From: a virus
Taxonomy: Duplodnaviria; Caudoviricetes
Direction: 5' to 3' (one strand)
Virus record (IMG/VR): IMGVR_UViG_3300028888_000049
DNA: 64,000 nt
The position numbers and the translations under genes are program-made. Under the pieces are notes generated by a model, which worked only from the letters and a program-made list of their open reading frames with translations, was not told where the DNA came from and did not search any database. Positions 9,063 through 39,369 of this stretch are shown piece by piece. Position 1 is the first letter of the stretch, and every line of letters begins with the position of its first letter.

Positions 9063-9950
9063 TCATACTGCTATTGGAAAAGTTACTTTAGATCCATGTT
9101 GATAATCATCTAATGAAGCCATTTCAGGCATAAAGTTAAATACAGTAGCATTAGGATCAAGTTTTAATGTTGGTAAGTCATATTGTTCTTCATACCAGTG
9201 TGAGAGATTCTCTTTTACTGTATCAATATGATTATCGTAAATATGACAATTTACCATATGTATTGTTACAAAGCCTGGATTCATATTAACTGTTTGACAC
9301 ATAAGTTTTAAAAACAGTGCACAATACATCATATCTGCAGGTAAACCTAAAATTACGTCTGTACTTCTCATTTCTGCTGTTAAATGTAGTTTATCTCCAG
9401 CATAAGTAAATGTAAATGCCCACATACAAGGAGGTAAAGCTTGAGTTTCTAGATGAGAAGGATCCCAAGCAGATATTATCATACGTCTATCATATGGATT
9501 AGTCTTTAAAGTTTCTACAACATTCTTTAACTGATCAACACCTTGTCCTGTATAATTAGTATCATAATTAATATAATTTGCTCCGAAATGTCTATAATGA
9601 AAGCCATAGACATTTCCGAGATCTCTCTCTTTAATCATACCTTCTTTATCAGAATAGGGTACTTTTGTAGGATTACACCATTGATCCCAATAGTTACACC
9701 CTCTCTCTTGTAAAATATGCTTATCAGTAACACCTTCTAAAAAGCATGATAATTCCGCTTTACATCCTTTAAATGGTAACGGTCTAAAAGTAAGAATAGG
9801 AAAAATGTCATCGGATAGATCAAACTGAAGTTGTTTTGAAACACAAGTTAATACATTGTTACCAGTTCTACAAGGTACTTTCATTCCATTTAATAAAACG
9901 TCTTCTACAAGGTTTAAATATTGGTTATCGTAAGTATTATTCATTTTCAA
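9063..9950 (-). CDS. thyA: Thymidylate synthase
   Basis: CRTG, LGNVYGFHYR, PYDRRMIISAW, ALPPC (catalytic Cys), MRSTDVILGLP, HIYDNH. Confidence 0.95.
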   Translation of the reverse strand: MKMNNTYDNQYLNLVEDVLLNGMKVPCRTGNNVLTCVSKQLQFDLSDDIFPILTFRPLPFKGCKAELSCFLEGVTDKHILQERGCNYWDQWCNPTKVPYSDKEGMIKERDLGNVYGFHYRHFGANYINYDTNYTGQGVDQLKNVVETLKTNPYDRRMIISAWDPSHLETQALPPCMWAFTFTYAGDKLHLTAEMRSTDVILGLPADMMYCALFLKLMCQTVNMNPGFVTIHMVNCHIYDNHIDTVKENLSHWYEEQYDLPTLKLDPNATVFNFMPEMASLDDYQHGSKVTFPIAV

Positions 9951-10122: not shown

Positions 10123-10667
10123 GAGTATTCGTTCTCTCTATCATGTATTAAACTTCCTAATTCATACCATAATTCATAATTCCATTTTAATTCCGGAATA
10201 TGATGTATTAAATTATTATAGCGATGTTCTATCATATGTATTGCTCTGTTTAAAATTCTAATTTTAGTTTTATCAAAGCAACGATATTCTATACTTCCAT
10301 CTATATGATGTGGTGTTAACCAATTATTTATCCAAGTATAACCGTTTTCTATACCAAAGATTTTATAATCAAGATTTTTAATTGTTTTCATACTAAAATG
10401 ACTAAGTTGACAAGTATAATTACAATCTCTTTTTAACTGTTGAATAAATTGTTTCCATTCTTCATCATTTTCACAAATATTTTTACGTTCACTAAAAGTT
10501 TCTTTAGTAGTTACATATTCAGCAAACGTATTTAGTTTATTACTAAGTATTCTCAGATCAATTTCTTCATCTAAGTAAGGAAAATAACAAAGTTCTGACT
10601 TAAAGTCATAAAATCTAATGTCACAATTTCGTATATTTTCTAAAAATCTAGTAAAATCAATTTTCAT
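10092..10667 (-). CDS. Degenerate HNH-like nuclease domain protein
   Basis: RDCNYTCQL ... LTPHHID ... LNRAIHMIEH. Confidence 0.45.
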   Translation of the reverse strand: MKIDFTRFLENIRNCDIRFYDFKSELCYFPYLDEEIDLRILSNKLNTFAEYVTTKETFSERKNICENDEEWKQFIQQLKRDCNYTCQLSHFSMKTIKNLDYKIFGIENGYTWINNWLTPHHIDGSIEYRCFDKTKIRILNRAIHMIEHRYNNLIHHIPELKWNYELWYELGSLIHDRENEYSWRKIIQKKR

Positions 10668-12870
10668 CTTTATTTAACTTCGCATAATATAATTCTTTAA
10701 TGTCAATTATTGATAAAGTTTTTAATTTTTCGATATTCATACTTTTCATGAAGTCAACGACTCTTTTAGCTTTATCATTTAATTGATTTTCTGGAATTTG
10801 TTTTTCATTAGTAATTTTGTCTTTAAGACTACGCATCCATTTCCAAAAACGATAATGTTGAGTTTTATATTTAACCATAAAACCTTTAGTATCTTCAAAT
10901 ACCCAACCTTCATATAGAATTAAACTACCCTGAGTATCAGCTTCTACATTTTTATAAAATTCTTTAAATGAATTAAAGTCTTTAATTACATATGATTTTT
11001 TCTTAACTTTTAAATCATATATATCTGCAAAATGAAGTAATTCATCATAAGGCATACGTTTACCTTCAAAAGTATTTTCTACAATATCTAATAAATATAA
11101 ACCATTTTCTTTATAACGTATAATATGTGGATCTTTATCTTGATTAATAACCTCAAAGATTAAAGTACAATTATTATGCTCTAAAAAATTACTCAATAAG
11201 AATTTTGTTTTATTTGGTAATAAATCCCATTGTTCTCTTAAATAACCTGCAAAAGGTCCTTCATTTGTAGATTTTGAAGCAATAAATAATTCATGATTAC
11301 GTTTATCATAAGAAACTAAACCCAAAAATCCATTTTCTTTTTTATAAGCAGTAACAGGAAAGCTAAGAGTATTTTCAAGATTATTTAGTTGAGTTTCAGG
11401 TCTTTCATTAATTGCAAAAAACTTATTATAAGATCTTGCTACAATCTTATCTGTTTGAGTATCGATAAATAAACCTCTAGCCGTTATAGTCAGATCATTC
11501 CATTTAGAATCTAGAAAAGCATCTCTTGTAAAGTTATAGCTAACGATTCCATTTCGTAATACTTTTTTATTAACAAGTTTAGAAGCATTAAGTTGTTGAA
11601 TAAACTCATTATCTGTTGTATAAGGTGATCGTGTTGTAGCTAATACCGGTCTTTCTTTATGAGTATTATTCTTAATGAGATGAATTATAGGTTCTTCTGT
11701 ATCTTTATTTATTTGAAGAATGCGTAAATTACCACCCCATTCAATTTCATCATTAACATTATATATATTATTTGCAACTTTAGTAGGAAGCATTTGAATA
11801 TTTCTATGACCATGTATTAAAACTACATCATCTGGATAAGATTCTTTCCAAGTATTATATATTTTTACAGTATCTTCATAATTACCAACGCCTTTAATTA
11901 ATTCAGAAGTTTTAATCAAACCGTCTGGTAATTTTGGCATACCACCATGTGAAACAAAATAAGTCTTACCATTATAAATGAAATAAGCCATTTGTGAAAG
12001 TCTATTAACTATATTTTGAATAATGCGCTTATCTAAAGTTTTTAATTGAGGTAATGTATTGTCATTAAATTCTTGTGAATCTCCTTTATCAGTCTCAAGA
12101 TATTTAATGAGATTACGATCATGATTGCCAGTTAACAATAATACATTATTATTTTCTTTAGATTTTTCGAGTAAATCATTTAAAAATGTTAATGTTTCAG
12201 CATTTTGTAGACCTCTATCAATATAATCACCTACAAAAATATAAAATGTATCATTACTAAATGTATGTTTATCAAACCATTCTTGTAAAGGTTCAACACA
12301 TCCATGAATATCACCAAATATTACAATCTCATTCCATTTATTAAAGTCATAACATACGTCATATAAAATCTCATGTACATCATTTGGTTTAATAATTTTA
12401 AAACGAGAAGAAGGAGCTTCACAATTACAATAAGATTCATACATTCTATCAATTACAGAATCTGGTACTGTTTTTAACCATTCACGCTTATGATTTCTAT
12501 CAATAAATACTTGTTTATCAATGATATTATTATCTTTATCACGCATAAAATCAACAATATATGCTCTGTATTTATACTTCTCGGCTAATTCTTTATACGG
12601 CTTAAGTGATTTATTATTACAATGAGTAGCATCAACAAAAACTGTTTCACCAGCTTTCATTTTAGTTTCTAGTAATTCAAAAAGAAACTTCCATACTTGT
12701 TTATCCATAGAAGAAGATATTGTTTTATATCCTTCTACATTATATTCTGGACATTGAAACAAAATACGCAAATCATCTGAACTTAATGTATAATGCTTAT
12801 ATCCATTTTCTTCAATCCAAGTACTTTTACCACAAGCAGGTACACCACGTAAAATAAATAAATTTCTCAT
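10657..12870 (-). CDS. Polynucleotide kinase / metallophosphatase / T4 Rnl1-like RNA ligase fusion (RNA repair)
   Basis: N-terminal P-loop GVPACGKS, central GDIHG/GDYIDRG/GNHD, C-terminal ARGLF..KFF, KENG, EGWV and KYK ligase motifs. Confidence 0.9.
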   Translation of the reverse strand: MRNLFILRGVPACGKSTWIEENGYKHYTLSSDDLRILFQCPEYNVEGYKTISSSMDKQVWKFLFELLETKMKAGETVFVDATHCNNKSLKPYKELAEKYKYRAYIVDFMRDKDNNIIDKQVFIDRNHKREWLKTVPDSVIDRMYESYCNCEAPSSRFKIIKPNDVHEILYDVCYDFNKWNEIVIFGDIHGCVEPLQEWFDKHTFSNDTFYIFVGDYIDRGLQNAETLTFLNDLLEKSKENNNVLLLTGNHDRNLIKYLETDKGDSQEFNDNTLPQLKTLDKRIIQNIVNRLSQMAYFIYNGKTYFVSHGGMPKLPDGLIKTSELIKGVGNYEDTVKIYNTWKESYPDDVVLIHGHRNIQMLPTKVANNIYNVNDEIEWGGNLRILQINKDTEEPIIHLIKNNTHKERPVLATTRSPYTTDNEFIQQLNASKLVNKKVLRNGIVSYNFTRDAFLDSKWNDLTITARGLFIDTQTDKIVARSYNKFFAINERPETQLNNLENTLSFPVTAYKKENGFLGLVSYDKRNHELFIASKSTNEGPFAGYLREQWDLLPNKTKFLLSNFLEHNNCTLIFEVINQDKDPHIIRYKENGLYLLDIVENTFEGKRMPYDELLHFADIYDLKVKKKSYVIKDFNSFKEFYKNVEADTQGSLILYEGWVFEDTKGFMVKYKTQHYRFWKWMRSLKDKITNEKQIPENQLNDKAKRVVDFMKSMNIEKLKTLSIIDIKELYYAKLNKDEN

Positions 12871-12950: not shown

Positions 12951-13580
12951 TTAATCTAATTTAAAATATTCTACTACTTCTTTTTCAAGATCTTCCATAG
13001 TACCATTATTAAGAAAGATATGTTCTGGATTATTAACACCTATCCAATCACGCTCTGAAGGATGTACTGATTTTAATTCTTCTGGTAATTCTTCAATTTT
13101 ACCAAGATTATAATTAAAAGCTAAATTCCACCAATCTGGTAATTTACCTCTTTGTACTTCTACAATTCTACCATTAAGACTTCGAATCATATCAATTTCA
13201 TTAGGAAATCTACAGTCAGTTATTACATAATTAGTATCTGGATGATCAACTATCTCTTTTTTAACTGTAATATCCCAAATGTGCTCTAAAAATGTACCTC
13301 TAGTAAGGTCAGTACCAATAGAAGTTAAAGCTTTTCTAGGAGTAAAATCAAAACCAAACTCTTTACTCCAAAATATATCAGGTTGTTCTCTCCATTCTCT
13401 TGATTCAGGAAAACGACCACTTAACATATCTCTATCCCAGCCAAACATAAGAGCTGCAATATCCTTTAATTTATCAGCAAACGCAACAGGTTTAAAAGAA
13501 TTATCGTGTTTACAAATAATATTCGAAATAGTATCTTTTCCGCTGCCTTTTAAACCTGTTATAGCAATGACTTTCTGCAT
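12951..13580 (-). CDS. Deoxynucleoside monophosphate kinase
   Basis: GLKGSGKDT, FADKLK, TPRKAL..IGTD, ITDCRFPNE, HPSE (T4 gp1-like). Confidence 0.9.
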   Translation of the reverse strand: MQKVIAITGLKGSGKDTISNIICKHDNSFKPVAFADKLKDIAALMFGWDRDMLSGRFPESREWREQPDIFWSKEFGFDFTPRKALTSIGTDLTRGTFLEHIWDITVKKEIVDHPDTNYVITDCRFPNEIDMIRSLNGRIVEVQRGKLPDWWNLAFNYNLGKIEELPEELKSVHPSERDWIGVNNPEHIFLNNGTMEDLEKEVVEYFKLD

Positions 13581-13952: not shown

Positions 13953-14423
13953 TTAGTTTGTACCTGTAGACCCAAATGCTCCAGATCCTCTAACTGTTTC
14001 AGGTAATGCATCATATTCTTCTGTACTTATCTCTTCTAACTCTTCATCAGAGATCTTTTCCAAAACAAATTGTACAATCTTATCACCAGGTTTAATAATC
14101 GTATACTTACCATTTTCATCTTCAAGATCTTCAGTACCTTCGGCTGCCTTCTGTAGATTAGCATGAATTTCACCTCGATAACATACATCAACTACACATG
14201 CTAAACAACTTAATCCACGCTTTCTACCAATCCCAGATTTGTTTTCAGCTTTAAGCATATAACCATCTGGAACTACAACTTTAATACCTGTGGGAATATT
14301 AACTTGTTGTCCAATATATAACTTTGTTTCTGGAAAGTCGTTTGGTACAAAAACGTCTATTCCAGCATCGAGTCCTCTCCGACCACAAGGTCTAGTTGTA
14401 TCTCTATAAATCGCATATTTCAT
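13953..14423 (-). CDS. dut: Trimeric dUTPase
   Basis: DAGID, KSG, VVD.CYRGEI, GDKIVQ, RGSGAFGSTG. Confidence 0.93.
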   Translation of the reverse strand: MKYAIYRDTTRPCGRRGLDAGIDVFVPNDFPETKLYIGQQVNIPTGIKVVVPDGYMLKAENKSGIGRKRGLSCLACVVDVCYRGEIHANLQKAAEGTEDLEDENGKYTIIKPGDKIVQFVLEKISDEELEEISTEEYDALPETVRGSGAFGSTGTN

Positions 14424-16569: not shown

Positions 16570-17760
16570 CTAAAAAACATCGTTAACGTCTAATATATTA
16601 TCCTTTTGTAATCTTATTAATAATTCGTTTAATCTTAAGTCAACATCTTCATCATATCTTATTTCTATTAACTCAATACTGTGAGACTTACAATATTCTC
16701 TCTTTATTTGATCTCTCTTCTGTGCATTTTCAAAAGCTTTCTGTGCTTTATCAATATTACCTTTATTATATGATATATAAAAATCAAAACCTTCTTTATA
16801 ATGTTGTCTACCTTGAAATTCAATACAAATGTTATAATCAGGCAAATAGAAATCAAAATGTAAAACTCTTTTATTTTTACATTCTTTAAAAGTATACTCA
16901 GCTTTATATTTTATACAATTAGTATCTAAAAATTTTGCTATTTTATCTTCATTATGACTAGAAGTACAAAATGGACATCCTTGTCCTCTAACATGATTTT
17001 GCGGAATTTGTTCGAATATCTTTCCACATTTATTACATTTAATTTTTACAGGTATTCTATTATTTATATATTTTACAAGTGAATAATCATATGTATCACC
17101 ATGTACTTTTTTAGCTTGGTTTAAGAATTTAATATCATTATCTTTAAAATTACCATTGCAATATGAACAACCTTGACCTCTAATATGATTATTTGGTGTT
17201 TGTTCAAATATTCTACCGCATTTATTACATTTTATTTTAACACACTTTTTGGCATCTTTATATTCAACTAAAGAATAATCATATTTATTACCATGAACAG
17301 CTTTAGCTTTTTCTATAAATTCTTCTAATGACAATGTCTTTTGTATAGCTCTTAATTTATATGAACAATCTCTGCAACCACTCCCAAATAGTAATGCATT
17401 TGGTGTACTATAAAAATATTTGTTACAAGTTTTACACCAGATTTTAACTTTAGTCTTATAATTTATATACTTGACTTCAGAATAATCATACTTATCGCCA
17501 TGAATTTGTATTAATCTACTTACAAATTCTTCAGTCGTTAATTTTGAATGTTCATGGCTTTTTTTACAATTACATAAAGTACAACCATGTCCGCATAAAT
17601 GTTTTACAGGTTTCTGATAAAAATATTTATTACAGTTTAAGCATTTAATTTTAATGGGAATATTTATACCTTTATATTCCACTTCTGAATAATCATACTT
17701 GTTACCATGTATCTTTTTAGCTTTTTCAATGAATTCTTCTGTTGTAAGTTTCTTACTCAT
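16570..17760 (-). mobile_element. Free-standing endonuclease: HG.KYDYS/CxxC zinc-finger repeats (DUF723-like) plus C-terminal Vsr/DUF559-like nuclease
   Basis: Four EFIEKAK..HG.KYDYS...CxxC...GCxxC repeats; FDFYLP..NICIEFQG.QHY nuclease core. Confidence 0.85.
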
Positions 17761-17761
17761 T

Positions 17762-20700
17762 TTAGCTCAAATCCTTACCTTCAAATTCATCTTGTTCAAT
17801 CAATTCATCAGCATGCTTTTTAAAGTAATAATACTTTCCTTTAAGTACATATAACTGATTTCTGTCAAGTCTTGTTGGAATTAATAAAATCAACTCTTCA
17901 AATGATACTGTACTCATCAACACCGGACTTAATTTCTGACATGATACAAATCGTGAACCATCACTCCAATCTAACTTCTTAATCTGTTTAATTAAAGCTT
18001 CTCGAGTGACACTCTTTCCACTAAACTTTTTCGGTTCAGCAATCTGTTCTTTCAATCTAGGCATATCTTCTAAGATTTCGTCTAAACTGAATACATATTT
18101 TGGTTCACAGTATAATGTTTGCATTTCACCAGTTTTAGGATTAATTACATCGGGTGTTCTTGTATATCTACCCGGCGTAGATACCTGAGCATCCGCTCCA
18201 ACAAATCCTAATTTATGTTGTAAATAATACCATATATTTTTATATTTATTACTTGGTACTGGCTTATCTATTCTTACAACACAGTGATATGATCTATGAC
18301 CACTCCATACAACTCTATATAATTTATCTTTAACTGGTTCTATTAAGTCTTCTTGCTCTTCTTTACTTAAATAATCACATTCAAATAAGAAGTTTTGACA
18401 TACTACTCCTGAATTAGTAGGATATGGACTTATATGATCTTTTAATGGATTTAACGATTGTAAGAAAGCTGGTTCTTCACTCTTATTATAACCTTCATCA
18501 TAATATGGTCCAAAAATTTCTTCAGCATCTAATAAATTCTTAGCAAAATTAATATATTCTTGTGTATTAATCTCTTCCCAAGTCAAAGAATCCAAATCAT
18601 CAATTAACTTCATATGTTGAGTAAAACCATTAATCTTAGATTCAGAATGTACGATTTCTGTTACTTCATTTCCATTCTCATCTAATACTGGTTTACCTTT
18701 TTCATCTTTAACAACTACCTCTTTAGGATTACGACTTATACTTATAAACTCTTCTGTTTCTGGATCATCGGGATATCCTACGATGAATGCTAATGAACGA
18801 CCTTCTAGCTTAGTCTTAGTCTTGGCATCACAAATCTCTCCTAATCCATGTCGTTTATAAATAACATAATCTCTAGGTAATGTATTCTCTAATAATGGTC
18901 TATGAGTAACTAAATTACATAAAATAGTACTTGTAGCCTTACCATACTTTTCATTTGAAAGATAAAAACCTTTAGACTTAACCTTTCCATTCGAAAATTT
19001 ACAATAATAATTATTCACGTTATTTTGTTGTAATAAGTCTATTTCGTCATATTCTAGTACTAATCTTGTTTCTTTAACCCAGTTTTCAGAGATAGGCATA
19101 AAGTCTACATCAGGTTGTCTTTCGATCATGATACCATCTGTATTTGTTTGTATGATATTAAATCCTGCGTTAAATAGTCTTTTTACGAGAATAAACAGGA
19201 GTAGTTGTCCATGAACGCAGATCGTTGAGTTAGACCATGTATCGTATAGAGGGTTGAATTTAGAGAGCATAGCGCCAATTGCTGAGTTTAATACTAGTTT
19301 AAGACCTAAGTTAAGGAGTGTATTTCCTGTGTGTTTGGCTTCAATTCTAGTATGATAAACTTGTTCGTATGAATCAGGGTGGGCGGCAGCACCTCGTGAC
19401 ATTAGGTTGTATTGTATCAGTAATGAGGGGTAAAGTGATGCAACATCCATATTCACGAGGTTAGTACTGCCATATTTAATAAGAGCTTGGTGTAAACCTC
19501 CAAATCCAAACTGGTATAAGTGTCCTTCGTCGTCTCCACCTAGATGTGTTTCGAATTTTTCTTTAATGTAGTCTGGATTTTGTTGGTTTTTGATATAAAA
19601 GTCTAATACGTCTGTTCCAGCTAATTCTTTATATGCAAGTTCTGGAATTGCGTAGTATTGTTTTTGACCATTTACGATTTTATATGTATTTTTGAGATTT
19701 GGTTTAGCATTTTCACCACATAATACTTTGGCTGCGAATGAAGCTGATTTTGTAATAAGTTGTTTAGCTTGCATTTTATATTCTACGATTAAGTTCCATT
19801 TAATATCGTAAGAATCTCTTGCAAATTCTCTCATTTTATATTTTGGATTTTCAGCTTTTTTCTCAAGATCACCTGGCTCTGGTAAGTATAATGATAAGGT
19901 ATTGTCCACGTCCATTGTACAATATCTTTCTACTTCTTCTCTTTGTTCTTGTGTTAGTGGTGTTTGAATATCGAATGGTACAGCTGAATCGTAGTTCTTT
20001 CTATTAAGTACTGACATAGTAAGTTTCTTAAGTGAGTTTCTACGAATATCAAATGGACCATGTAAAGATATATCCCATGATAAAAAGTTAGGAGGAGTTA
20101 CATCTTCAATGATTTCACCTTTTTCATTATAGTTTATACCATCTTGTGTTCTTACAATAGTCCATTTAGCAGCTAATTCTGGAAATTTATTAGGATTTTG
20201 ATCATAGATTAATGCATCAGAAAATTCTTTGACTGTAGGTGTACCTTGAACTGTATATGGATAGATCATAGCATGTTTAATTACAGCATCATCATATCCG
20301 CTATTATTAAATCCTATTAAGATTTTATTCTTTATCCATTTTCTTAATGTATCACCATCATTCCAACATACTACTTTATTCTTTCTATCTAATGTCATAG
20401 CTACAAATAGCCAATCATATTTGAATACTTCAATATCGTAAATCCATTCATATCTAACACCAGAATTATAATTTTCTCTTTTTATTTGTTTTTCTGATAG
20501 ATTAGATCTAATATATGGAATGTATGCATTATGATACCATTTAGAATACCATTCAGAAGATTCTCCATTTGGATGTTTTTCATCTCCATAGAAAGTCCAG
20601 CTTTTACGATCTCTATCTATATGATTAGCTTCATCTTCAGTAATTGTTTTAATTGGTATAATTTTTCCTGTACTATCTCTAAATTTAAATGTATTAATAA

Positions 20701-21523
20701 TTGTATCTAGATCTTCACTATAGACAGGTACAGTAGTAAATATCTTTTTTAATATATTTTTTCTTTCTAATTTAAGTTCGTCATCATCATTTTTACAACA
20801 ATCATCATCTGAACAATAAATTAATTCTACATCAGTATAACTATCATATACTTTACAATATTCAGTTAAATGTGTTGTAGGATTTAGTTTCATATTATAT
20901 CTAAACCCTTTAATAGCATTCATATCATATAATAAGCATATGGTTTCTAATTTTCTTATAAATTGTTTTGTATCACAATATGGAGATGTCTTAATATTTA
21001 CTGCAATATTAGTATTATTTAGAATTTGTGCAATGTCTGTATAATTATCATCTACTTCAGGTAATATAACATATGGAAATTTAAGATCTACTTTACCTGT
21101 AATTCTTGTATCAAAAACACTAAGACCTTTATTATCTTTATCAAAAAATAAACTTCTAACAGCTAAATTAGTAGATTTATAATAATCAGCATCAAAAGCT
21201 TCAAAAGCAGATTGTCCAATAAATGCAACTATAAGTTTACTAAAATCAATAGTACCTTTTTGTGCATAATATTCTAATATATTAAAGAATACATATCTAG
21301 CAAAATCAGTACCTCTAGCATCATTTACATACGTTACATGCGTTTCAGCAGATTTAAACTTACTCTGAAATACCCTATTTAAGTATGACATACCTTTAAC
21401 AGAATCAAAAATTTCTTTCTTATCATGTTCTAACGGTTTGTCAGCAATAAGAATTAATTTTGGTCCTAATGAACATTCATATTCTTTAATATCTCTTGGT
21501 ATAAACTTAACTTGATCTGCCAT
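17762..21523 (-). CDS. DNA polymerase (family B-type) with 3'-5' exonuclease, N-terminal UDG-like region and C-terminal primase-like domain
   Basis: YDIEVF, GFNN..YD and YC..DV exonuclease motifs; DVASLYPS, KLVLNSAIG and NTDG polymerase motifs; FECD, SGHRSYH and RYTRTP..NPKTG primase motifs. Confidence 0.9.
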   Translation of the reverse strand: MADQVKFIPRDIKEYECSLGPKLILIADKPLEHDKKEIFDSVKGMSYLNRVFQSKFKSAETHVTYVNDARGTDFARYVFFNILEYYAQKGTIDFSKLIVAFIGQSAFEAFDADYYKSTNLAVRSLFFDKDNKGLSVFDTRITGKVDLKFPYVILPEVDDNYTDIAQILNNTNIAVNIKTSPYCDTKQFIRKLETICLLYDMNAIKGFRYNMKLNPTTHLTEYCKVYDSYTDVELIYCSDDDCCKNDDDELKLERKNILKKIFTTVPVYSEDLDTIINTFKFRDSTGKIIPIKTITEDEANHIDRDRKSWTFYGDEKHPNGESSEWYSKWYHNAYIPYIRSNLSEKQIKRENYNSGVRYEWIYDIEVFKYDWLFVAMTLDRKNKVVCWNDGDTLRKWIKNKILIGFNNSGYDDAVIKHAMIYPYTVQGTPTVKEFSDALIYDQNPNKFPELAAKWTIVRTQDGINYNEKGEIIEDVTPPNFLSWDISLHGPFDIRRNSLKKLTMSVLNRKNYDSAVPFDIQTPLTQEQREEVERYCTMDVDNTLSLYLPEPGDLEKKAENPKYKMREFARDSYDIKWNLIVEYKMQAKQLITKSASFAAKVLCGENAKPNLKNTYKIVNGQKQYYAIPELAYKELAGTDVLDFYIKNQQNPDYIKEKFETHLGGDDEGHLYQFGFGGLHQALIKYGSTNLVNMDVASLYPSLLIQYNLMSRGAAAHPDSYEQVYHTRIEAKHTGNTLLNLGLKLVLNSAIGAMLSKFNPLYDTWSNSTICVHGQLLLFILVKRLFNAGFNIIQTNTDGIMIERQPDVDFMPISENWVKETRLVLEYDEIDLLQQNNVNNYYCKFSNGKVKSKGFYLSNEKYGKATSTILCNLVTHRPLLENTLPRDYVIYKRHGLGEICDAKTKTKLEGRSLAFIVGYPDDPETEEFISISRNPKEVVVKDEKGKPVLDENGNEVTEIVHSESKINGFTQHMKLIDDLDSLTWEEINTQEYINFAKNLLDAEEIFGPYYDEGYNKSEEPAFLQSLNPLKDHISPYPTNSGVVCQNFLFECDYLSKEEQEDLIEPVKDKLYRVVWSGHRSYHCVVRIDKPVPSNKYKNIWYYLQHKLGFVGADAQVSTPGRYTRTPDVINPKTGEMQTLYCEPKYVFSLDEILEDMPRLKEQIAEPKKFSGKSVTREALIKQIKKLDWSDGSRFVSCQKLSPVLMSTVSFEELILLIPTRLDRNQLYVLKGKYYYFKKHADELIEQDEFEGKDLS

Positions 21524-21605: not shown

Positions 21606-21857
21606 CTACTCTAAACCAACAGCCTTTTCATAAGTAGCAAACAATAACTCTTCTTCTTCACGTTGCTGCTTATTTTTACGGCGCTGCTTGATAACGTGAT
21701 TAATGGCTTTTGGATCAAACCCTGCCGACTTTGCTTCCAACAAAATATCTTTACGATCTTGTTTCATTTCGCCAATTTCATCATCTACACGCTCGATACG
21801 CTCAATGATTGTCTTTAAACGCTTTGAATCCATTCCACCAACTTCAGTTTCTGACAT
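21606..21857 (-). CDS. gapR: GapR (DUF2312) nucleoid-associated, overtwisted-DNA-binding protein
   Basis: LKTIIERIER...DRKDILLEAKSAGFDPKAI..VIKQR...E..L..Y..AVG. Confidence 0.88.
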   Translation of the reverse strand: MSETEVGGMDSKRLKTIIERIERVDDEIGEMKQDRKDILLEAKSAGFDPKAINHVIKQRRKNKQQREEEELLFATYEKAVGLE

Positions 21858-21959
21858 TTTATTATCCTTTTTAAAAAATTAACTATCTTACATTTATATA
21901 GAAGTATAAATATTTTACTACTTTTCAAATTATTTTAAATTAATCTTCCAAATAGTTTA

Positions 21960-23066
21960 TTATTCACCTTCTTTATATTCACCTGTTATTGGATCAAACT
22001 CTTCTTCCTCAGATTCAGTATCTTCACTAGATGTATCTTCAAAAGATTTCATAACAAAATCTTTAACTTTTGCTGTAAAATCTTCTAATAATTCGGGTTG
22101 ACTCTTTAACCATAACAAAGCTTTGTCTTTACCTTGTGCTACGTTTTCACCATTATATTTAAACCAAGCACCAGATTTTTCTACTAATCCGAATTTAACA
22201 GCATAATCTAATACTTCTTCTTCTTTAGAAATACCTTTACCAAAACGAATAATAAAATTAGCTGTCTTAAATGGCGGAGCAACTTTATTCTTAATCACTT
22301 TAACTTCAGTCTCACGCGCTATTGCCATAGCATCATCACCTTTTCCTTCTTTGATTTGAGACTTACCAGCAATACGCATACGAACAGAAGAATAAAATTG
22401 CAAAGCCATTCCACCTGTTGTCGTTTCTGGATTACCAAACATAACACCAATTTTCATACGGATTTGGTTAACAAACAAACATAAGCAATTAGCTTCATTC
22501 GCCATCGCAGCAATTTTCTTTAATCCAGAAGACATTAAACGAGCTTGAGTGCCAATGAAGTTGTCACCAACCTCTCCATTCAATTCAGCTTTAGTTCTTG
22601 CTGCTGTTACACTATCAAAAATGATTACATCAACAAGTTTATTAGTTAATAATTCAACAATCATATTGAAACCGTCTTCTATGCAAGAAGGCTGTGAAAA
22701 AATAAGATTATTAAGATCAACACCTAAAGCTTTAGCATAGTTTGCATCGAAGGCGTTTTCGAAATCCAAGTAACAGACCGATAATCCTTTTTTCTGAGCT
22801 TCACTGCAAACCTGTAAACAAACTGTTGATTTACCACTTGATTCTGGTCCATAAATTTCACAGATACGTCCAAGTGGTAAACCTCCTACACCTAATGCTA
22901 AATCTAAAGAAATACTACCAGTTGAAACAACATCGACTTTTTTAATTTCGGTATTATTAAAAGTCATAGCTGATCCATCGCCAAATTTACTATTTAAAAG
23001 CTTAAGTGCAGCTTGAATCTTATTATTTCCTGCAGTTTCTTCTACTTTTTCAGCTTTTTTAGCCAT
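21960..23066 (-). CDS. recA: RecA recombinase (bacterial type)
   Basis: STGSISLDLALGVGGLPLGRICEIYGPESSGKST, NQIRMKIGVMFGNPETTTGGMALQFYSSVR, KNKVAPPF. Confidence 0.97.
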   Translation of the reverse strand: MAKKAEKVEETAGNNKIQAALKLLNSKFGDGSAMTFNNTEIKKVDVVSTGSISLDLALGVGGLPLGRICEIYGPESSGKSTVCLQVCSEAQKKGLSVCYLDFENAFDANYAKALGVDLNNLIFSQPSCIEDGFNMIVELLTNKLVDVIIFDSVTAARTKAELNGEVGDNFIGTQARLMSSGLKKIAAMANEANCLCLFVNQIRMKIGVMFGNPETTTGGMALQFYSSVRMRIAGKSQIKEGKGDDAMAIARETEVKVIKNKVAPPFKTANFIIRFGKGISKEEEVLDYAVKFGLVEKSGAWFKYNGENVAQGKDKALLWLKSQPELLEDFTAKVKDFVMKSFEDTSSEDTESEEEEFDPITGEYKEGE

Positions 23067-23116: not shown

Positions 23117-24229
23117 CTAATTTTGGGAAAAAAGTTCCATTTCTAATCTTTTTTCGATATTTTCATCATATTTTATTTCAACAAGCTTAATATTATGCTC
23201 TTTACAATAATCACGCTTAATTTTATCGTGTTTTTGTTGTATTTTAAATTTTAATATAGCTTTATCATCATCTTTTAATTTACCTTTAAAATACCATGGA
23301 GAATAATGTTGAGCACCTTGAAATTCAATACAAATATTATAAGTAGGTAAATAAAAATCAAATGGTAATGACCTTTTATCTTTACAATCTTTAAATCTTT
23401 TTTCGGAAATATATTCTACATTATGATTTTTCAAATATTCTGATATAAATTCTTCCTTTTTACTTCTAGTACATTTTGGGCAACCAAATCCATTTAAATG
23501 ATTACCAACTTTTTGCCAAAAATTATTACCACATTTATTACAATGAATAAAAATATAACCTTCTTTATTATCAGGGTAAATTGATTTTGAATAATCATAT
23601 TTATTACCATGTATTTTTTTGGCTTTTTCTATAAATTCATTTATATTACTTCTTAGTTTAAGTCTTGCACTATTTCTAGCACATTTTGGACAACCTCCTC
23701 CACGAAGCAATTCACTAGGAGTAGTATAAAAGAATTCTTTACATGTATTACACCAAACTTTACCTTTTATTTTTGCTCCTTTATATTCAAATTCAGTAAA
23801 GTCATATTTATCTCCATGAATTAATTTAACTTCTTTTATGAATTGTTCTTTTGTTTTTCTATTTGGATGTATTTTTTCAGGAGTACAATTAGGACATTCT
23901 TTTTGACCCTGATAAAATAAATACGCTTTTATTTTAAATTCTGTACCACAATTATTACATTTTATATCAATTAAATCATTTAACGTATTAAATTTTATTT
24001 TACTATAATCATATTTATCACCATAACGTTTTTTACATTTTTTAATAAATCTACTTAAACTCATATATAAATGAATATCGTTATTAACTCTTGGTATATT
24101 ATACTCTGATAAGTTTTGTCTAATAACTTTTGCACTCGTTTTAAATAATTCAGCTATATTAGATATTGGCAATTTCTGTACAATATATAAATCATATAAT
24201 TGTTCTTTGTCAAGTATTCTTTTACGCAT
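23117..24229 (-). mobile_element. Free-standing endonuclease (HTH, DUF723-like repeats, Vsr/DUF559-like nuclease); paralogue of 16570-17760
   Basis: HG.KYD repeats, GCPKC, LPFDFYLP.YNICIEFQG.QHY. Confidence 0.85.
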
Positions 24230-24584
24230 GTTTTTTCTCCTTCCAACAAATAGGACAATTATTACCTTTTAAATGTCTATGCGGAGTTATAGAAAATTCA
24301 TGACCACAATCTTTTTTTATTAATATAACTGGAGTTTCTGAATTTATATATTTTACTTTTGAATAATCATAAAGATCTCCATATTTAGTTTTACTTTTAT
24401 TTATAAATGTAAACGCATTATCTTTATGGCCTCTAGTTTCTTTTTTTATATTTAATTCTTTTAATTTTCTTTGTAAAGTATATGGATGAATTTCTAATAT
24501 TTTTGCTATTTCTTTTAATTCTAAATTTTGATTAATATACAATTCTATGAGTTTATCTTTATCTAATTCAATTTTAGTATTCAT
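24222..24584 (-). CDS. HTH plus single DUF723-like repeat, no nuclease domain
   Basis: LIELYINQNL HTH; YGDLYDYSKVKY...CGHEF...CPIC. Confidence 0.7.
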   Translation of the reverse strand: MNTKIELDKDKLIELYINQNLELKEIAKILEIHPYTLQRKLKELNIKKETRGHKDNAFTFINKSKTKYGDLYDYSKVKYINSETPVILIKKDCGHEFSITPHRHLKGNNCPICWKEKKHA

Positions 24585-26321: not shown

Positions 26322-27686
26322 TTAAGCTAAAATATCATCAGGTCCATCGTTTTTAGGTAAATCGTACTTATTTTTGTAGAATGGTCCTACTTTAGCAAGT
26401 ATATCTTTAACTTTTTTACGAATGATTGCTTCTTCAAGGTTAATAGTTCCTTCTGGTACAGTCAAATCTGGGTTTAAGAGAATTTGTGCTATAATTTGTC
26501 CTAATTCAAAACACATATCTTCATTAAAACCTCGTGCTGTAATAGCTGGAGTACCAAGACGAATACCTGTACAATCTGCTGGCTTCAAATCACCTGAAAT
26601 CATATTTTTATTACATATGATGTTATATGACTCTAATAAAGATTCTGCTTGTTTACCAGTAAGACCTATACCTTTCATATCAAGTAAAACCATATGATTT
26701 TCTGAACCACCTGATACAAAACGAATTTTAGATTGTTTATCGTAATCTTTTATACCTTTTATAATAGCTTGCATATTACGATATACTTGTTCTGCATATT
26801 CTTTAAATTCTGGTTTAAGACAGTTTATAAAGCATTGTGCTTTTGCTGCAGTCATAGCATGATTACTTCCTCCAATATTTCCTGGAAATACTGCACTATT
26901 AATCTTTTTTGTATACGCATCATCATTCCAAAGAATTACTGAGCTTCTTGGGCCCAATAAACCCTTGTGGGTAGTAGTAGTTACAACATCAGACCAAATA
27001 GTAGGATCATACTTATCTTTCCACAAGTGTGCTGCGATAAATAAGCTAAAATGAGCCATATCAGTCCAAAGAATACAAGATTTTGGATCAGCATCTGGAT
27101 TATTACTTCCACCTTGATCATAATATACAGATTGATTATAATCATCAACAAGAGAACGTACTTTTTCAAAATCAATACGTCTTGAATATGCAGAATAACC
27201 CATAATCAACAATCTAGGTTTAACTTCATATAATCTTTTTCTAATTTCATCATAATCAATTAATTCATTTATTAATTCATAATTATGGTTTTCATACATA
27301 CGACCAGAATATGTAAATTTACTCCCGTGAGTCAAGTGGGCTCCGAGATTAAGATCCATAGATAATGTTCTATCACCTGGTTTACAAAAAGCATGATATA
27401 CACATGTATTTGCGTTACTACCATTAAATGTTTGAACATTAGCATGTTTAACTCTGAATAATTCACAAGCTTTGTCAATACAGTATTGTTCTACTTTATC
27501 AATTACTTCACATCCAGCATAATGCCTATTTCCAGGTAGACCTTCTGCATAATGTACTGATAATACTGAGCCTTCTAAATCTAAAATATCTTGATTTGGT
27601 AAGCCTTCAGATGCAATAAGACAAATTGTATCATTTAATTTATCAGTTTCTTCATTTACTAATTGCTGTAATTTTGGATCAATCAT
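26322..27686 (-). CDS. glyA: Serine hydroxymethyltransferase
   Basis: LIASE, YAEG.PG.RHYAGC, GAHLTHG, DMAH, TTTTHK (PLP Lys), NKN, GIRLGTPAITARG. Confidence 0.96.
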   Translation of the reverse strand: MIDPKLQQLVNEETDKLNDTICLIASEGLPNQDILDLEGSVLSVHYAEGLPGNRHYAGCEVIDKVEQYCIDKACELFRVKHANVQTFNGSNANTCVYHAFCKPGDRTLSMDLNLGAHLTHGSKFTYSGRMYENHNYELINELIDYDEIRKRLYEVKPRLLIMGYSAYSRRIDFEKVRSLVDDYNQSVYYDQGGSNNPDADPKSCILWTDMAHFSLFIAAHLWKDKYDPTIWSDVVTTTTHKGLLGPRSSVILWNDDAYTKKINSAVFPGNIGGSNHAMTAAKAQCFINCLKPEFKEYAEQVYRNMQAIIKGIKDYDKQSKIRFVSGGSENHMVLLDMKGIGLTGKQAESLLESYNIICNKNMISGDLKPADCTGIRLGTPAITARGFNEDMCFELGQIIAQILLNPDLTVPEGTINLEEAIIRKKVKDILAKVGPFYKNKYDLPKNDGPDDILA

Positions 27687-36885: not shown

Positions 36886-39369
36886 ATGGAAACGTTACCT
36901 GAAGATATAGAACGTAAACTAGAAAACTTACCAGTTGTTTCATTTGATGCTAGTGATGAATTACCTCGAGTATTAGCTACTCAAGATTTTATTGATATAT
37001 TCAATTATTACAAAGAACACTTTTTACCAGATGTCCTTAAATCACAACCAGAAATATATCAAAAAGTAAGTCTATATCTAACATTAACCGGTCAAGATAC
37101 AGCATTTGCTAACCAAACAGATCAAGTTCTCTTTAGAAGACCTGTACCAACTATGGAAGAATTTCTAAATGATGACTTCTATCATGGCAAACTAACTGCT
37201 ACAATGTATCCATACTGGAAAGAACAGCTATGTAATATCTTCAGAGAAAATTCACCAGTACGAAAAGTAATCTTTGGAGGATCAATAGGATCGGGAAAAA
37301 GCACCATTGCTCGTAAAGCTATCGTATACTCTTTATACAGAGCATTATGTCTAAGATATCCTAGAGCTGCATTTAACGTCGATGAAGATACTACTCTTGC
37401 TAACTTCATTGTATCAGTTACTATTAAACAAGTATTTGATACTAACTTAATGCCATTCGTAAGTCTATTAAATAATATGCCTTGCTTTCAATCAGTACGT
37501 CATATCACTTCTTTCGATGGTTTTAATTTAGACGATCCTTACTGTCCAATACCATTCTGGGTTGAAAAATCTTCAGGTACTATATTCTTCCCAAATAACT
37601 TCATCTTATCAGCAGGATCACAAGTACAACATACTATTGGTTACTCTATCATTAACTCTTTCTGCTTTACTGAAAACACTAAAGTATATACAAACAAAGG
37701 TATCTTAACATTCAAAGAATTAGAAAACAGATTTAAAAACAATGAATCCTTTACAACAAAATCAATAACAAATACTAAAGAAATTATAGACTCTAACATA
37801 ACTAATGTACAAATAACAGGATATAAACAAGACTTTATAAAAATATATATCACAGACACAGATTATATTGAATGCACTCCCGAACATCCCTTTGTTATAG
37901 CTAATCCAAAAGAAAACGATCCATTCTTAATATACGAAAACGGAATACCATACAAATATACTAAAGACTTAACAGAAAAAGATGAACTAGAAGAAGGAAA
38001 TTCATCTATAAAAATTAAAAAGATCGAAAAAGTACATTATGATGAACCAAAACCAGTCTATGACTTAACAGTAGATAGTAAATACCATAATTTCCTCATC
38101 AATCGTGGTCTTAATATTTTTACCCACAATTGTGATGAAATTAATGAGCGTGGCGTTGAAACGGCTATTAATTTCCTTAACTCAATTGATAACCGCTTCA
38201 GTTCGAGATTCCAAGGCAGTCCGTTTGTCTTCCAAGCGGTTGTCTCTTCGGCTCGAACCACAAACAGTCCTATTGGTGAGTATATTAAGCATTTACCCAA
38301 GAATGATCCTAGTATTGAGATCTTGTCTCCTTGTTTGTGGGAAGTAAAGCCTGACCCGAACTTTATTGGAGATGGCACAACGTTTCCTGTTCTCGTTGGC
38401 AATGGTTCTATACCTTCTAGTATTATTACAGATGAAGCAACTTTAAAGGCTATAGATGAAGGTAAGTATGTCGAGCCAACAGGTTGTAGTTTAATTCACG
38501 TGCCAACAGTTTATAGATCAAAGTTCGAATTACAATTAGATCAGTCTATACAAGATATTGCTGGTATGACTACATCTGATAATAATATGGTATTTAGAGA
38601 TACGTCTAGATTAGAAGATACTGCATTATTACCAGAGTTATATATGGAAGCTAATATACGTGATAATATTAATTTATTAGATTTATTACCAGTAGATAGA
38701 ATATTTGAGAAAGGTCTTAATAATAGATGGTATTTTAAGAGAGCTCCTAATGCACCTAGGTTCTGTCATGTCGACTTAGGTGGATCAGGAGAACGAAATT
38801 GTGATACTGCATTATGTATTGGTCATAAAGAGTGGAAGAATAATACTGTAACTAACATGAGAGATACTATATATGTAGTAGATATGTTAATATTTGTTAC
38901 AGCACCAATTAAAGTAGATTTAAAAGCTATTGAAAACTTTCTTATAGGTCTTGTTAAAGTATATAATGCACCTATACATACTGTTTCTTTTGACCAATGG
39001 CAATCTCTTGTTATGACACAAAATCTAGAAGTATCTGGATGTTTTACTGAGGTTAAAAAAGTATCAGTAGATCTTAAACCAGAACCATATATGAATGCTG
39101 CTAGATTAATGGAATTAGGACAAGTTAAAATAGGCGCATGTCCAAAACTTAAAAAAGAATTAGAAGCTCTTATTTTTGAAAAAGGTAGAGTAACAAGAAC
39201 TACCGAACTTAAAGATGGCGCTGACGTATTAACTGGATTTATTTATGATGCTCAAATGTGTACTGAAGCCACTCCAATAGATAGATATAAAAACGCTGGA
39301 GCAGTTAAATTCGATAAAGGATATAAACTCTATATTAATAAAGATGAATACTTAACAGACTTGTTCTAA
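36886..39369 (+). CDS. terL: Terminase large subunit containing an intein
   Basis: Walker A GGSIGSGKS, Walker B SFCDE (rejoined after splicing), VSS motif III, nuclease HVDLG, SFDQWQS, KDGAD. Confidence 0.9.
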   Translation: METLPEDIERKLENLPVVSFDASDELPRVLATQDFIDIFNYYKEHFLPDVLKSQPEIYQKVSLYLTLTGQDTAFANQTDQVLFRRPVPTMEEFLNDDFYHGKLTATMYPYWKEQLCNIFRENSPVRKVIFGGSIGSGKSTIARKAIVYSLYRALCLRYPRAAFNVDEDTTLANFIVSVTIKQVFDTNLMPFVSLLNNMPCFQSVRHITSFDGFNLDDPYCPIPFWVEKSSGTIFFPNNFILSAGSQVQHTIGYSIINSFCFTENTKVYTNKGILTFKELENRFKNNESFTTKSITNTKEIIDSNITNVQITGYKQDFIKIYITDTDYIECTPEHPFVIANPKENDPFLIYENGIPYKYTKDLTEKDELEEGNSSIKIKKIEKVHYDEPKPVYDLTVDSKYHNFLINRGLNIFTHNCDEINERGVETAINFLNSIDNRFSSRFQGSPFVFQAVVSSARTTNSPIGEYIKHLPKNDPSIEILSPCLWEVKPDPNFIGDGTTFPVLVGNGSIPSSIITDEATLKAIDEGKYVEPTGCSLIHVPTVYRSKFELQLDQSIQDIAGMTTSDNNMVFRDTSRLEDTALLPELYMEANIRDNINLLDLLPVDRIFEKGLNNRWYFKRAPNAPRFCHVDLGGSGERNCDTALCIGHKEWKNNTVTNMRDTIYVVDMLIFVTAPIKVDLKAIENFLIGLVKVYNAPIHTVSFDQWQSLVMTQNLEVSGCFTEVKKVSVDLKPEPYMNAARLMELGQVKIGACPKLKKELEALIFEKGRVTRTTELKDGADVLTGFIYDAQMCTEATPIDRYKNAGAVKFDKGYKLYINKDEYLTDLF
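37663..38130 (+). mobile_element. 156 aa mini-intein in TerL Walker B
   Basis: Starts CFTENTKV, block B ECTPEHPF, block F VYDLTV, ends IFTHN followed by extein Cys; no endonuclease domain. Confidence 0.93.

Follow-up and report, generated by a model that had tools for sequence, protein, structure and literature searches.

Taking all the evidence together, we consider it likely that a 1253-aa phage protein is a proofreading family-B polymerase (PolB) with a primase fused to its C-terminus in one chain, and that its front module is a remnant of a UDG-PolA polymerase. The protein is encoded by a single open frame (17762..21523 (-)) in the window, which here means the whole stretch of 64,000 nucleotides of tailed-phage DNA that was analysed. 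The frame, for which 129 homologs were found, comprises in order a UDG fold, a dead exonuclease fold, a PolB exonuclease, a PolB polymerase, an AEP primase, and a PriCT-like domain. The original prediction of three modules was right about the UDG-like, PolB, and primase-like parts, but the count has to be raised to five folds by the dead exonuclease fold and the PriCT-like tail.

The 1253-aa protein and its PolB core

The frame begins with ATG, with GAGGGG 5 nt upstream of the start. The motifs on which the original prediction was based were all recovered in the translation, namely LILIADKP (aa 23-30), THVTYV (61-66), IVAFIGQSAFEAF (98-110), FLFECD (1045-1050), VWSGHRSYH (1072-1080), D1111, and PGRYTRTP (1117-1124). 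Most of the 129 homologs were 98-100% covered and 52-99% identical, and 119 were full-length proteins from metagenomes, belonging to phages of ~230-250 kb. Among cultured phages no protein covered more than 51% of the frame, a Pfam scan of the whole protein gave no match, and a PDB sequence search gave a weak Pol II match only. A step in codon usage at aa ~355 in the window genome might indicate that the long frame is an artefact, produced by faulty assembly or by read-through across separate genes. This step is missing from seven relatives, and the recovery of 119 full-length homologs at 52-99% identity from ENA, Logan, JGI, and NCBI refutes the artefact, to which we give practically no chance. 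We regard the protein as the replicative enzyme of an uncultured giant-phage family, tailed phages of ~230-250 kb.

The central part matched the phrog_1252 DNA polymerase profile over aa 357-999 (E 3.5e-88). It consists of a proofreading exonuclease (aa 355-550; 19874..20461 (-)) followed by the polymerase domain (aa 551-1000; 18524..19873 (-)). The exonuclease and polymerase motifs had been described as clear, and indeed every PolB and AEP catalytic residue was kept in all 119 full-length homologs, including the ExoI-III residues D363, E365, N407, D411, Y534, and D538 and the polymerase motifs A (DxxSLYP, D693), B (K742/N746), and C (QxNTD796G). In a sparsely sampled PolB tree the family formed its own clade with P0130 (95/85), which was sister to the crAss sequences with weak support (86/74).

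The fused primase and the source of primers

Structure prediction, Foldseek, and VIA comparison assigned aa 1005-1155 (18059..18511 (-)) to an AEP catalytic domain of the PrimPol-PV1 type, which carries E1048 (codon at 18380-18382), D1050, S1078, H1080, D1111, and R1122. The model (pLDDT 93.7) matched the S-2L PrimPol 6zp9 by Foldseek (E 1.7e-7) and by VIA (Z 13.7, rmsd 3.0, 142 aligned), and RepB' 3h25 by VIA (Z 11.1). The AEP fold proposed for the C-terminus is therefore present, and its motifs I-IV are invariant: these residues, S1078 included, did not vary among 113 diverse AEPs and the 119 family members, and E1048, D1050, H1080, D1111, and R1122 align with E85/D87/H118/D146/R157 of the S-2L PrimPol. 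The proposed motifs I-III were also found, but YTR belongs to motif IV (R1122) and motif III is D1111 alone. The conserved primase His is H1080 (119/119), whereas position 1076 varies (Ser in 53, Asn in 43, and His in 23). In the RepB' family motif II carries Gln (PMC5862659), which makes the RepB' part of the proposed AEP/RepB'-type label a little inaccurate; the His at motif II resembles the All3500/S-2L type.

The AEP domain is followed by an all-helical PriCT-like domain in the model (aa 1165-1240; 17804..18031 (-)), in which G1189 and R1191 of a G-x-R motif were kept in 119/119. Pfam PriCT_1 was matched by 11 of the 113 aligned AEP homologs (best E 7e-10), and the window protein itself was unmatched. 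A tblastn search of cultured phages with the AEP part gave no match. Among distant AEP homologs, fusions to SF3-like helicases occur, and three other PolB-AEP fusions (804-838 aa) were found without the front module, two of them directly downstream of an SF3-like helicase gene. The AEP tree placed all PolB-fused AEPs in one group (95/77), and the PolB tree placed P0161 and P0249 apart; on the AEP tree, all PolB-AEP fusions may have a single origin.

Genes for RecA and a GapR-like protein lie directly upstream of the polymerase frame (21606..23066 (-)), an arrangement that was the same in the relatives examined. RecA was ~50% identical to those of many proteobacteria, and the GapR-like neighbor presumably hints at Alphaproteobacteria as the host. 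A separate DnaG, the presence of which the original prediction had asked to be checked, was sought in relatives only, namely three that are 93-98% complete. Each of these three carries one DnaB, and its sole AEP of this kind is the one joined to PolB. The DNAG_N, Toprim_2, Toprim_4, and Zn_ribbon_DnaG profiles, all of which matched bacterial controls, found nothing in these three, and neither did a search for a DUF5906 helicase. A motif scan and Pfam search of ten candidate frames in the relative G001 gave a UvsW-like helicase, AAA proteins, and a weak gp32-like match, but no primase. The single match to phrog_47, 39 aa long (E 3e-4), lies in one genome in a frame of 61 aa, which is not a primase gene. 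In G004, a relative by its capsid (MCP 56%), genes for DnaB, a stand-alone AEP of the same family, and DnaE stand in a row between RecA and a dNMP kinase, and Toprim_2 had no match.

Since a proofreading polymerase and a primase are joined in one chain, we infer, as the original prediction did, that the 1253-aa protein is probably able to begin new DNA strands and to elongate them unaided. A separate phage DnaB-like helicase would open the fork, the AEP domain and the PriCT-like tail would make primers on the single-stranded template, and these would be handed to the PolB active site of the same chain or of a neighboring copy, which would then extend and proofread. Primers could instead come from a very divergent phage DnaG or from that of the host. 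On a rival reading, the AEP is active but is used for other tasks, namely priming at specific origins, the filling of gaps, or repriming where DNA is damaged. Routine priming of the lagging strand would then fall to the host DnaG or to a phage primase that escaped recognition. The helicase fits this explanation, as DnaB-like enzymes are usually paired with DnaG and SF4 helicases are paired with AEP primases in only 19% of viruses (PMC4889955). In standard assays the S-2L PrimPol, the closest solved relative of the AEP, extended primers but did not make them (PMC8065100). RepB' also matches the fold closely, and RecA adjoins the polymerase gene. Nevertheless, the AEP gene of G004 stands immediately between those for DnaB and DnaE, the usual place of DnaG, the 1253-aa protein has retained the PriCT-like domain that priming requires, and a Toprim primase was not found in four genomes. 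We therefore judge an AEP confined to such tasks to be quite unlikely. If the self-priming reading is true, the protein would be a natural one-chain primase and proofreading polymerase for a genome of ~240 kb, through which primer hand-off could be studied directly. It would also be a candidate enzyme for amplifying whole genomes without added primers.

The front module

The N-terminal part (aa 1-178; 20990..21523 (-)) was modeled (pLDDT 92.8) as a degenerate family-4-like UDG fold. Comparison of the predicted model by VIA gave Z 10.0 to the T. maritima UDG 1l9g (rmsd 3.4, 142 aligned), 9.3 to 2d3y, 9.1 to UdgX, and 9.1 to the phiLo UDG-PolA 9qhs. A family-4 UDG-like fold had been predicted here and is present; the extension, put at ~160 aa, is in fact ~350 aa and includes a second fold. 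The lack of catalytic residues was also correctly foreseen. By a weak profile alignment combined with motif spacing and context, the Asn position is Y65 (Tyr in 111/119 homologs), the motif B His position (H178 in phiLo) is L154 in 119/119, and the catalytic-Glu position is D34, kept in 119/119. Motif A reads A-[E/L/D/K]-K-P-L-x-x-D instead of the family 4 GE(A/G)PGxxE, so that only the Pro and the acid (as Asp) are kept. Family 4 uracil-DNA glycosylases carry Fe-S cluster cysteines. No conserved Cys was present among the invariant or near-invariant columns of the alignment. Because His is replaced by Leu and Asn by Tyr, uracil excision by this fold is unlikely.

The pocket still retains its acid (D34) and Phe (F39, 113/119). 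Along with these, S41, T61, H62, and L154-P155 are kept in a domain whose identity within the family is only ~46%, as might be expected of a non-cutting sensor that reads ahead and, on binding template uracil or a pyrimidine modified by the phage, stalls PolB or steers it. In phiLo, the UDG domain is turned toward the template in front of the fork (PMC13697223). A neighboring thymidylate-synthase homolog has Asp at the position of E. coli N177 and is without His147, a signature of dCMP specificity (PMC13326640, PMC8670742), and on the basis of this signature the window phage genome may carry modified cytosine. However, the position of the uracil-reading Asn holds Tyr and that of the His holds Leu, the family member L012 has a canonical thymidylate synthase and still keeps the front module, and no contact of aa 1-300 with PolB was confident in the complex model. 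A sensor of this kind, which the original prediction had raised as a possibility, is accordingly rather unlikely in our estimate. It is very doubtful that everything applies at once, i.e. that a PolB-primase was grafted into a UDG-PolA gene to give a single-chain, self-priming, proofreading replicase with a dead glycosylase reading bases ahead of the fork in a genome with modified cytosine supplied by the adjacent dCMP-type synthase.

The second fold (aa 181-~302; 20618..20983 (-)) was identified by VIA and Foldseek as a dead 3'-5' exonuclease of the DEDD/PolA type. Its VIA scores were Z 7.5 to EXD2 (rmsd 3.3, 98 aligned), a value within the range common for unrelated folds, and Z 6.5 to the Klenow exonuclease. 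At ExoI, (N/E/D)xK takes the place of DxE, with K212 in 108/119. The following docking segment (aa 303-345; 20489..20617 (-)), in which G320, S323, W325, Y326, and W329 are invariant, packs on the PolB exonuclease domain in the predicted complex. The model scored 0.77 and the best control 0.00, the mark for this score being reached by 58/80 solved pairs and 2/110 mismatched pairs; runs shared at least 85% of contacts, the partner pLDDT was 85, and all confident contacts fell within aa 303-338. Because both parts adjoin within one chain, the predicted docking shows fold continuity and not a separate binding event.

Since a dead exonuclease fold follows the UDG fold in the order of PolA enzymes, the models suggest that the front end is probably a remnant of UDG-exo-PolA. 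The PolA catalytic domain would have been replaced by an incoming PolB-AEP unit, and the front ~350 aa would have persisted without catalysis, as a module for DNA binding or processivity that aa 303-338 anchor to the PolB exonuclease. When aa 1-350 were compared with viral models by Foldseek, the best matches were phage UDG-PolA polymerases, over 300-350 columns (best E 4e-8) that cover both front domains in the same order. A different history is that UDG-like and exonuclease-like domains joined PolB separately, or that aa 181-345 are a lineage-specific N-terminal domain of PolB. Sequence profiles leave room for it: the front module showed no significant similarity to SPO1, N4, or a 40-sequence UDG-PolA alignment, and comparison with SPO1-family N-termini gave P 0.074, or 0.035 and 0.079 domain by domain (not significant). 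The packing of aa 303-338 into the PolB exonuclease in the model is in line with it as well. No PolA was found among 11 records of relatives, several of them fragmentary, nor an intact UDG-PolA at the locus; the sole relative with another polymerase carries DnaE, and PF00476 (PolA) was absent from the 1253-aa protein and the three near-complete relatives. On the other hand, the Foldseek matches and the top PDB match, 9qhs, point to PolA enzymes, and the weak profile alignment stays in register from UDG into ExoI, YCDT included. Either of these histories is hence an unlikely competitor to the UDG-PolA origin. The front module was present in every full-length homolog; its only stand-alone occurrences were fragments of the same polymerase family on short contigs, and a PHROG scan of the N-terminal alignment gave nothing consistent.

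Relation to known replication proteins

PolB-primase fusions with an N-terminal primase and UDG-PolA fusions are already known, and no description of a UDG-dead exonuclease-PolB-AEP layout was found in the literature searched, which left out most subscription papers. Of the former kind, gp55 of Lactococcus phage 1706 (HelPrimPolB; PMC7544198, PMC4889955) likewise has an AEP in one chain with a PolB, which belongs to the same broad, divergent clade. Its order is SF3 helicase, AEP, PolB, whereas in the 1253-aa protein the AEP is C-terminal and the N-terminus is formed by a UDG and dead exonuclease module, with DnaB encoded separately as the helicase. Moreover, gp55 was unmatched by the profile of the C-terminal AEP, being of a different AEP family, and its PolB lies on a long separate branch.

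The UDG-PolA enzymes (SPO1 gp31, N4 gp39, SP15-like phiLo, and YerA41; PMC10201439, PMC13697223) also begin with a family-4-like UDG fold and a 3'-5' exonuclease fold, and UDG catalytic residues are lost in the 1253-aa protein as in N4-like enzymes. They differ in that the polymerase here is of family B, the exonuclease after the UDG is dead, a second, active PolB exonuclease proofreads, and a primase is fused. Should the front end prove to be what remains of a UDG-PolA, a polymerase would have been swapped inside one gene and across families A and B, while in published polymerase swaps whole genes were replaced (PMC11348598). The family would also offer a test of the role of catalytically dead UDG domains on phage polymerases such as N4-like enzymes.

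The phrog_1252/crAss-like PolBs of small phages (Paenibacillus, Enterococcus, Listeria P40, crAss cr131_1) share the exonuclease-first core and motif C QxNTDG at 23-30% identity, but they are ~550-650 aa long and have neither extension; in some uncultured members an ERF domain forms the C-terminus instead. The cyanophage S-2L PrimPol (All3500-like) and RSF1010 RepB' of the PrimPol-PV1 supergroup (PMC8065100, PMC5862659) have in common with the present AEP the fold, motifs I-IV, and a helical PriCT-like partner domain. Here the AEP follows PolB in the same chain, whereas those enzymes stand alone or precede a helicase, and motif II has His unlike RepB'. Four positions ahead of the conserved Asn, most family members have Leu (97/119), where distant AEP homologs have an aromatic residue, Phe/Tyr. 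In the poxvirus polymerase holoenzyme, the D4/E4 UDG also works with a family-B polymerase, but as a separate, active subunit. The piPolB of pipolins is a PolB protein capable of primer-independent synthesis; it has TPR1/TPR2 insertions but no AEP domain, and primes with its own polymerase site. For the 1253-aa protein, the AEP domain would be a simpler route to priming than such use of the polymerase site.

The polymerase gene and its setting

The window belongs to the AT-rich genome (about 24-34% GC) of a tailed phage. Among its genes are terminase-, prohead- and tail-like ones, and it has long homologous gene blocks in common with a 237-kb IMG/VR genome. Positions 17762-21523 (minus strand) form one single frame of 1253 aa, in which all the sequence motifs quoted in the original prediction were located where it had placed them. 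A protein search found 129 homologs, nearly all at 98-100% coverage and 52-99% identity, on contigs of up to 250 kb; no cultured phage record covered more than 51% of the protein. We conclude that the fusion protein is real.

A GapR-like DNA-binding protein is encoded directly upstream (21606-21857, minus strand), likewise in the relatives examined, which we take to be a hint of an alphaproteobacterial host. The RecA-GapR-polymerase block is flanked by free-standing genes (16570-17760, 23117-24229 and 24222-24584, minus strand) whose products combine repeated zinc-finger-like units (DUF4379) with a nuclease-like end, a build typical of homing endonucleases; they are absent at the corresponding places in the related loci L001 and L002. 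The window also encodes a three-domain RNA repair enzyme (kinase, phosphoesterase and RNA ligase; 10657-12870, minus strand) and a terminase-like protein with an intein (36886-39369, plus strand). A relative's genome, G001, carries a run of ~20 genes (C1:73741-98305), many with radical-SAM-like CxxxCxxC starts.

PolB core and C-terminal AEP domain

Residues 357-999 match phrog_1252 (E 3.5e-88). The exonuclease and polymerase motifs are as clear as predicted: the ExoI-III residues (D363, E365, N407, D411, Y534, D538) and motifs A (D693), B (K742, N746) and C (QxNTD796G) do not vary among 119 full-length sequences. Judged by sequence, the core belongs with the divergent PolBs found in small phages of Firmicutes and in crAss-like phages (PMC7544198). 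In a PolB tree of 51 rows, the family forms one clade (100/99), whose sister is one other PolB-primase fusion on a long branch (95/85), whereas Lactococcus 1706 gp55 stands apart. Related small-phage PolBs at L061:9332-12286 and L047:5655-8297 carry a C-terminal ERF single-strand-annealing domain; a comparable tail, unannotated, is present in several others.

When aa 990-1253 were searched exhaustively, 227 proteins were recovered: some stand alone (~260 aa), others have an SF3-like (DUF5906) helicase ahead, and another three are PolB fusions of 804-838 aa that lack the front module. The C-terminal model (pLDDT 93.7) matched the AEP (primase-type) domain of S-2L PrimPol (Foldseek E 1.7e-7; Z 13.7, rmsd 3.0, 142 residues) and RepB' (Z 11.1), and its best fifteen structural matches were AEP-fold entries. 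E1048, D1050, S1078, H1080, D1111 and R1122 are invariant across 113 of the 227 homologs; the S-2L catalytic set (E85, D87, H118, D146, R157) is profile-aligned to the invariant residues, which correspond to motifs I-IV of the PrimPol-PV1 supergroup (PMC5862659). The AEP part of the predicted AEP/RepB'-type primase held, but RepB' family proper was excluded because of the His at motif II. A helical domain with an invariant GxR follows; PriCT_1 was matched by 11 of the 113 homologs, though not by the window's own protein. In 97 of the 119 family members, residue 1021 (18461-18463) is Leu, against Phe/Tyr in most distant AEP homologs; if this position is the steric gate, the primers may be RNA.

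Three relatives of 227-237 kb (CheckV 93-98%) encode one DnaB each, and the fused domain is their sole AEP of this kind; four DnaG/Toprim models found no match in them, with bacterial controls positive. The strongest contextual support for a primase role comes from G004, a 231-kb relative (major capsid protein 56%), in which DnaB, a 321-aa stand-alone AEP and DnaE lie in this order between RecA and dNMP kinase (C1:160748-166430, L262). This AEP belongs to the family of the fused one (E 5.5e-45), and Toprim_2 had no match in G004. The gene order indicates that the AEP family sits where the replicative primase belongs in this phage group, and that the replicase was exchanged at this locus, a swap between polymerases of families C and B. 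An SF3-like helicase gene precedes the PolB-AEP gene in two other phage contigs. Caution for the primase reading comes from S-2L PrimPol, which showed no priming in standard assays (PMC8065100).

A degenerate front module

The front module (N-terminal 350 residues) was modeled as two folds (pLDDT 92.8). The predicted family-4 UDG-like domain was recovered in aa 1-178 (Z 10.0 with family-4 UDG of T. maritima and 9.1 with the phiLo PolA UDG domain; eight best rows all UDG-fold entries). For aa 181-308 the matches are DEDD exonucleases (Z 7.5 for EXD2, 6.5 for Klenow); such scores are moderate by themselves. The whole module could be aligned with phage PolA polymerases, SP-15 included, across 300-350 columns (best E 4e-8), with the phiLo enzyme as top PDB match. 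A profile comparison with 40 SPO1-family N-termini was not significant (P 0.074); its alignment stays in register from UDG into ExoI, with SPO1 DxE opposite NxK. As expected from the reported lack of obvious catalytic residues, the glycosylase motifs appear broken, with residue equivalences assigned by motif context, without coordinates: motif A is AxKPLxxD, the Asn position is Tyr, and the catalytic His position (H178 in phiLo) is Leu in 119/119. D34 and F39 are retained.

The module is present in every full-length homolog and drifts faster (median identity 46% for the UDG fold and 38%, versus 66-73% for PolB). In a complex model it docks onto the PolB core with a score of 0.77, the best control scoring 0.00 (58/80 solved and 2/110 mismatched pairs reach this mark; run agreement at least 85% of contacts; pLDDT 85). 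All confident contacts run through aa 303-338, with an invariant GxxSxWYxxW helix; this segment is the chain neighbour of PolB, so the pass reflects fold continuity. In the model, the folds of the UDG and the dead exonuclease have no fixed place.

At position 20460 (aa ~355), codon usage changes sharply, GC3 stepping from 0.06 in the front module to 0.18 in PolB-AEP (P 7e-8). The step is absent in seven relatives, and the homolog P0003 shows 65% identity ahead of it and 92% beyond it, which suggests that part of the gene was recently exchanged in the window's lineage.

A thymidylate-synthase homolog 8 kb downstream of the polymerase gene (9063-9950, minus strand) carries Asp where E. coli has N177 and Met in place of H147, and keeps Leu at L143. 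Asp at N177 with loss of His147 is the published signature of dCMP-modifying enzymes (PMC13326640, PMC8670742), so that a dCMP methylase signature is apparent and raises the question of a 5mC genome. The Asp occurs in 11 family loci, the canonical Asn in L012. The UDG fold may serve in base sensing; the signature is present in most but not all relatives. Genes for a dNMP kinase (12951-13580), a dUTPase-like protein (13953-14423) and SHMT (26322-27686) lie nearby.

Proposed function and origin

Most likely, DnaB would open the strands, the AEP-PriCT domain would make primers, its predicted activity, and PolB would elongate and proofread them. The front module would most likely be a non-catalytic DNA binder, the role suggested for inactive UDG domains of the N4 type (PMC10201439, PMC13697223). 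The AEP tree unites all PolB-fused domains (95/77) and separates them from the G004 enzyme; this points to, but does not prove, a joint arrival of PolB and AEP as one unit. In the simplest history, this unit would have taken the place of the PolA catalytic domain in a UDG-exo-PolA gene; no intermediate was found among the relatives examined. In the published literature searched, we found no report of a C-terminal AEP, or of a UDG with a dead exonuclease, on PolB; primase-PolB fusions are already known as HelPrimPolB (PMC7544198, PMC4889955), as are UDG-PolA fusions (PMC10201439, PMC13697223).
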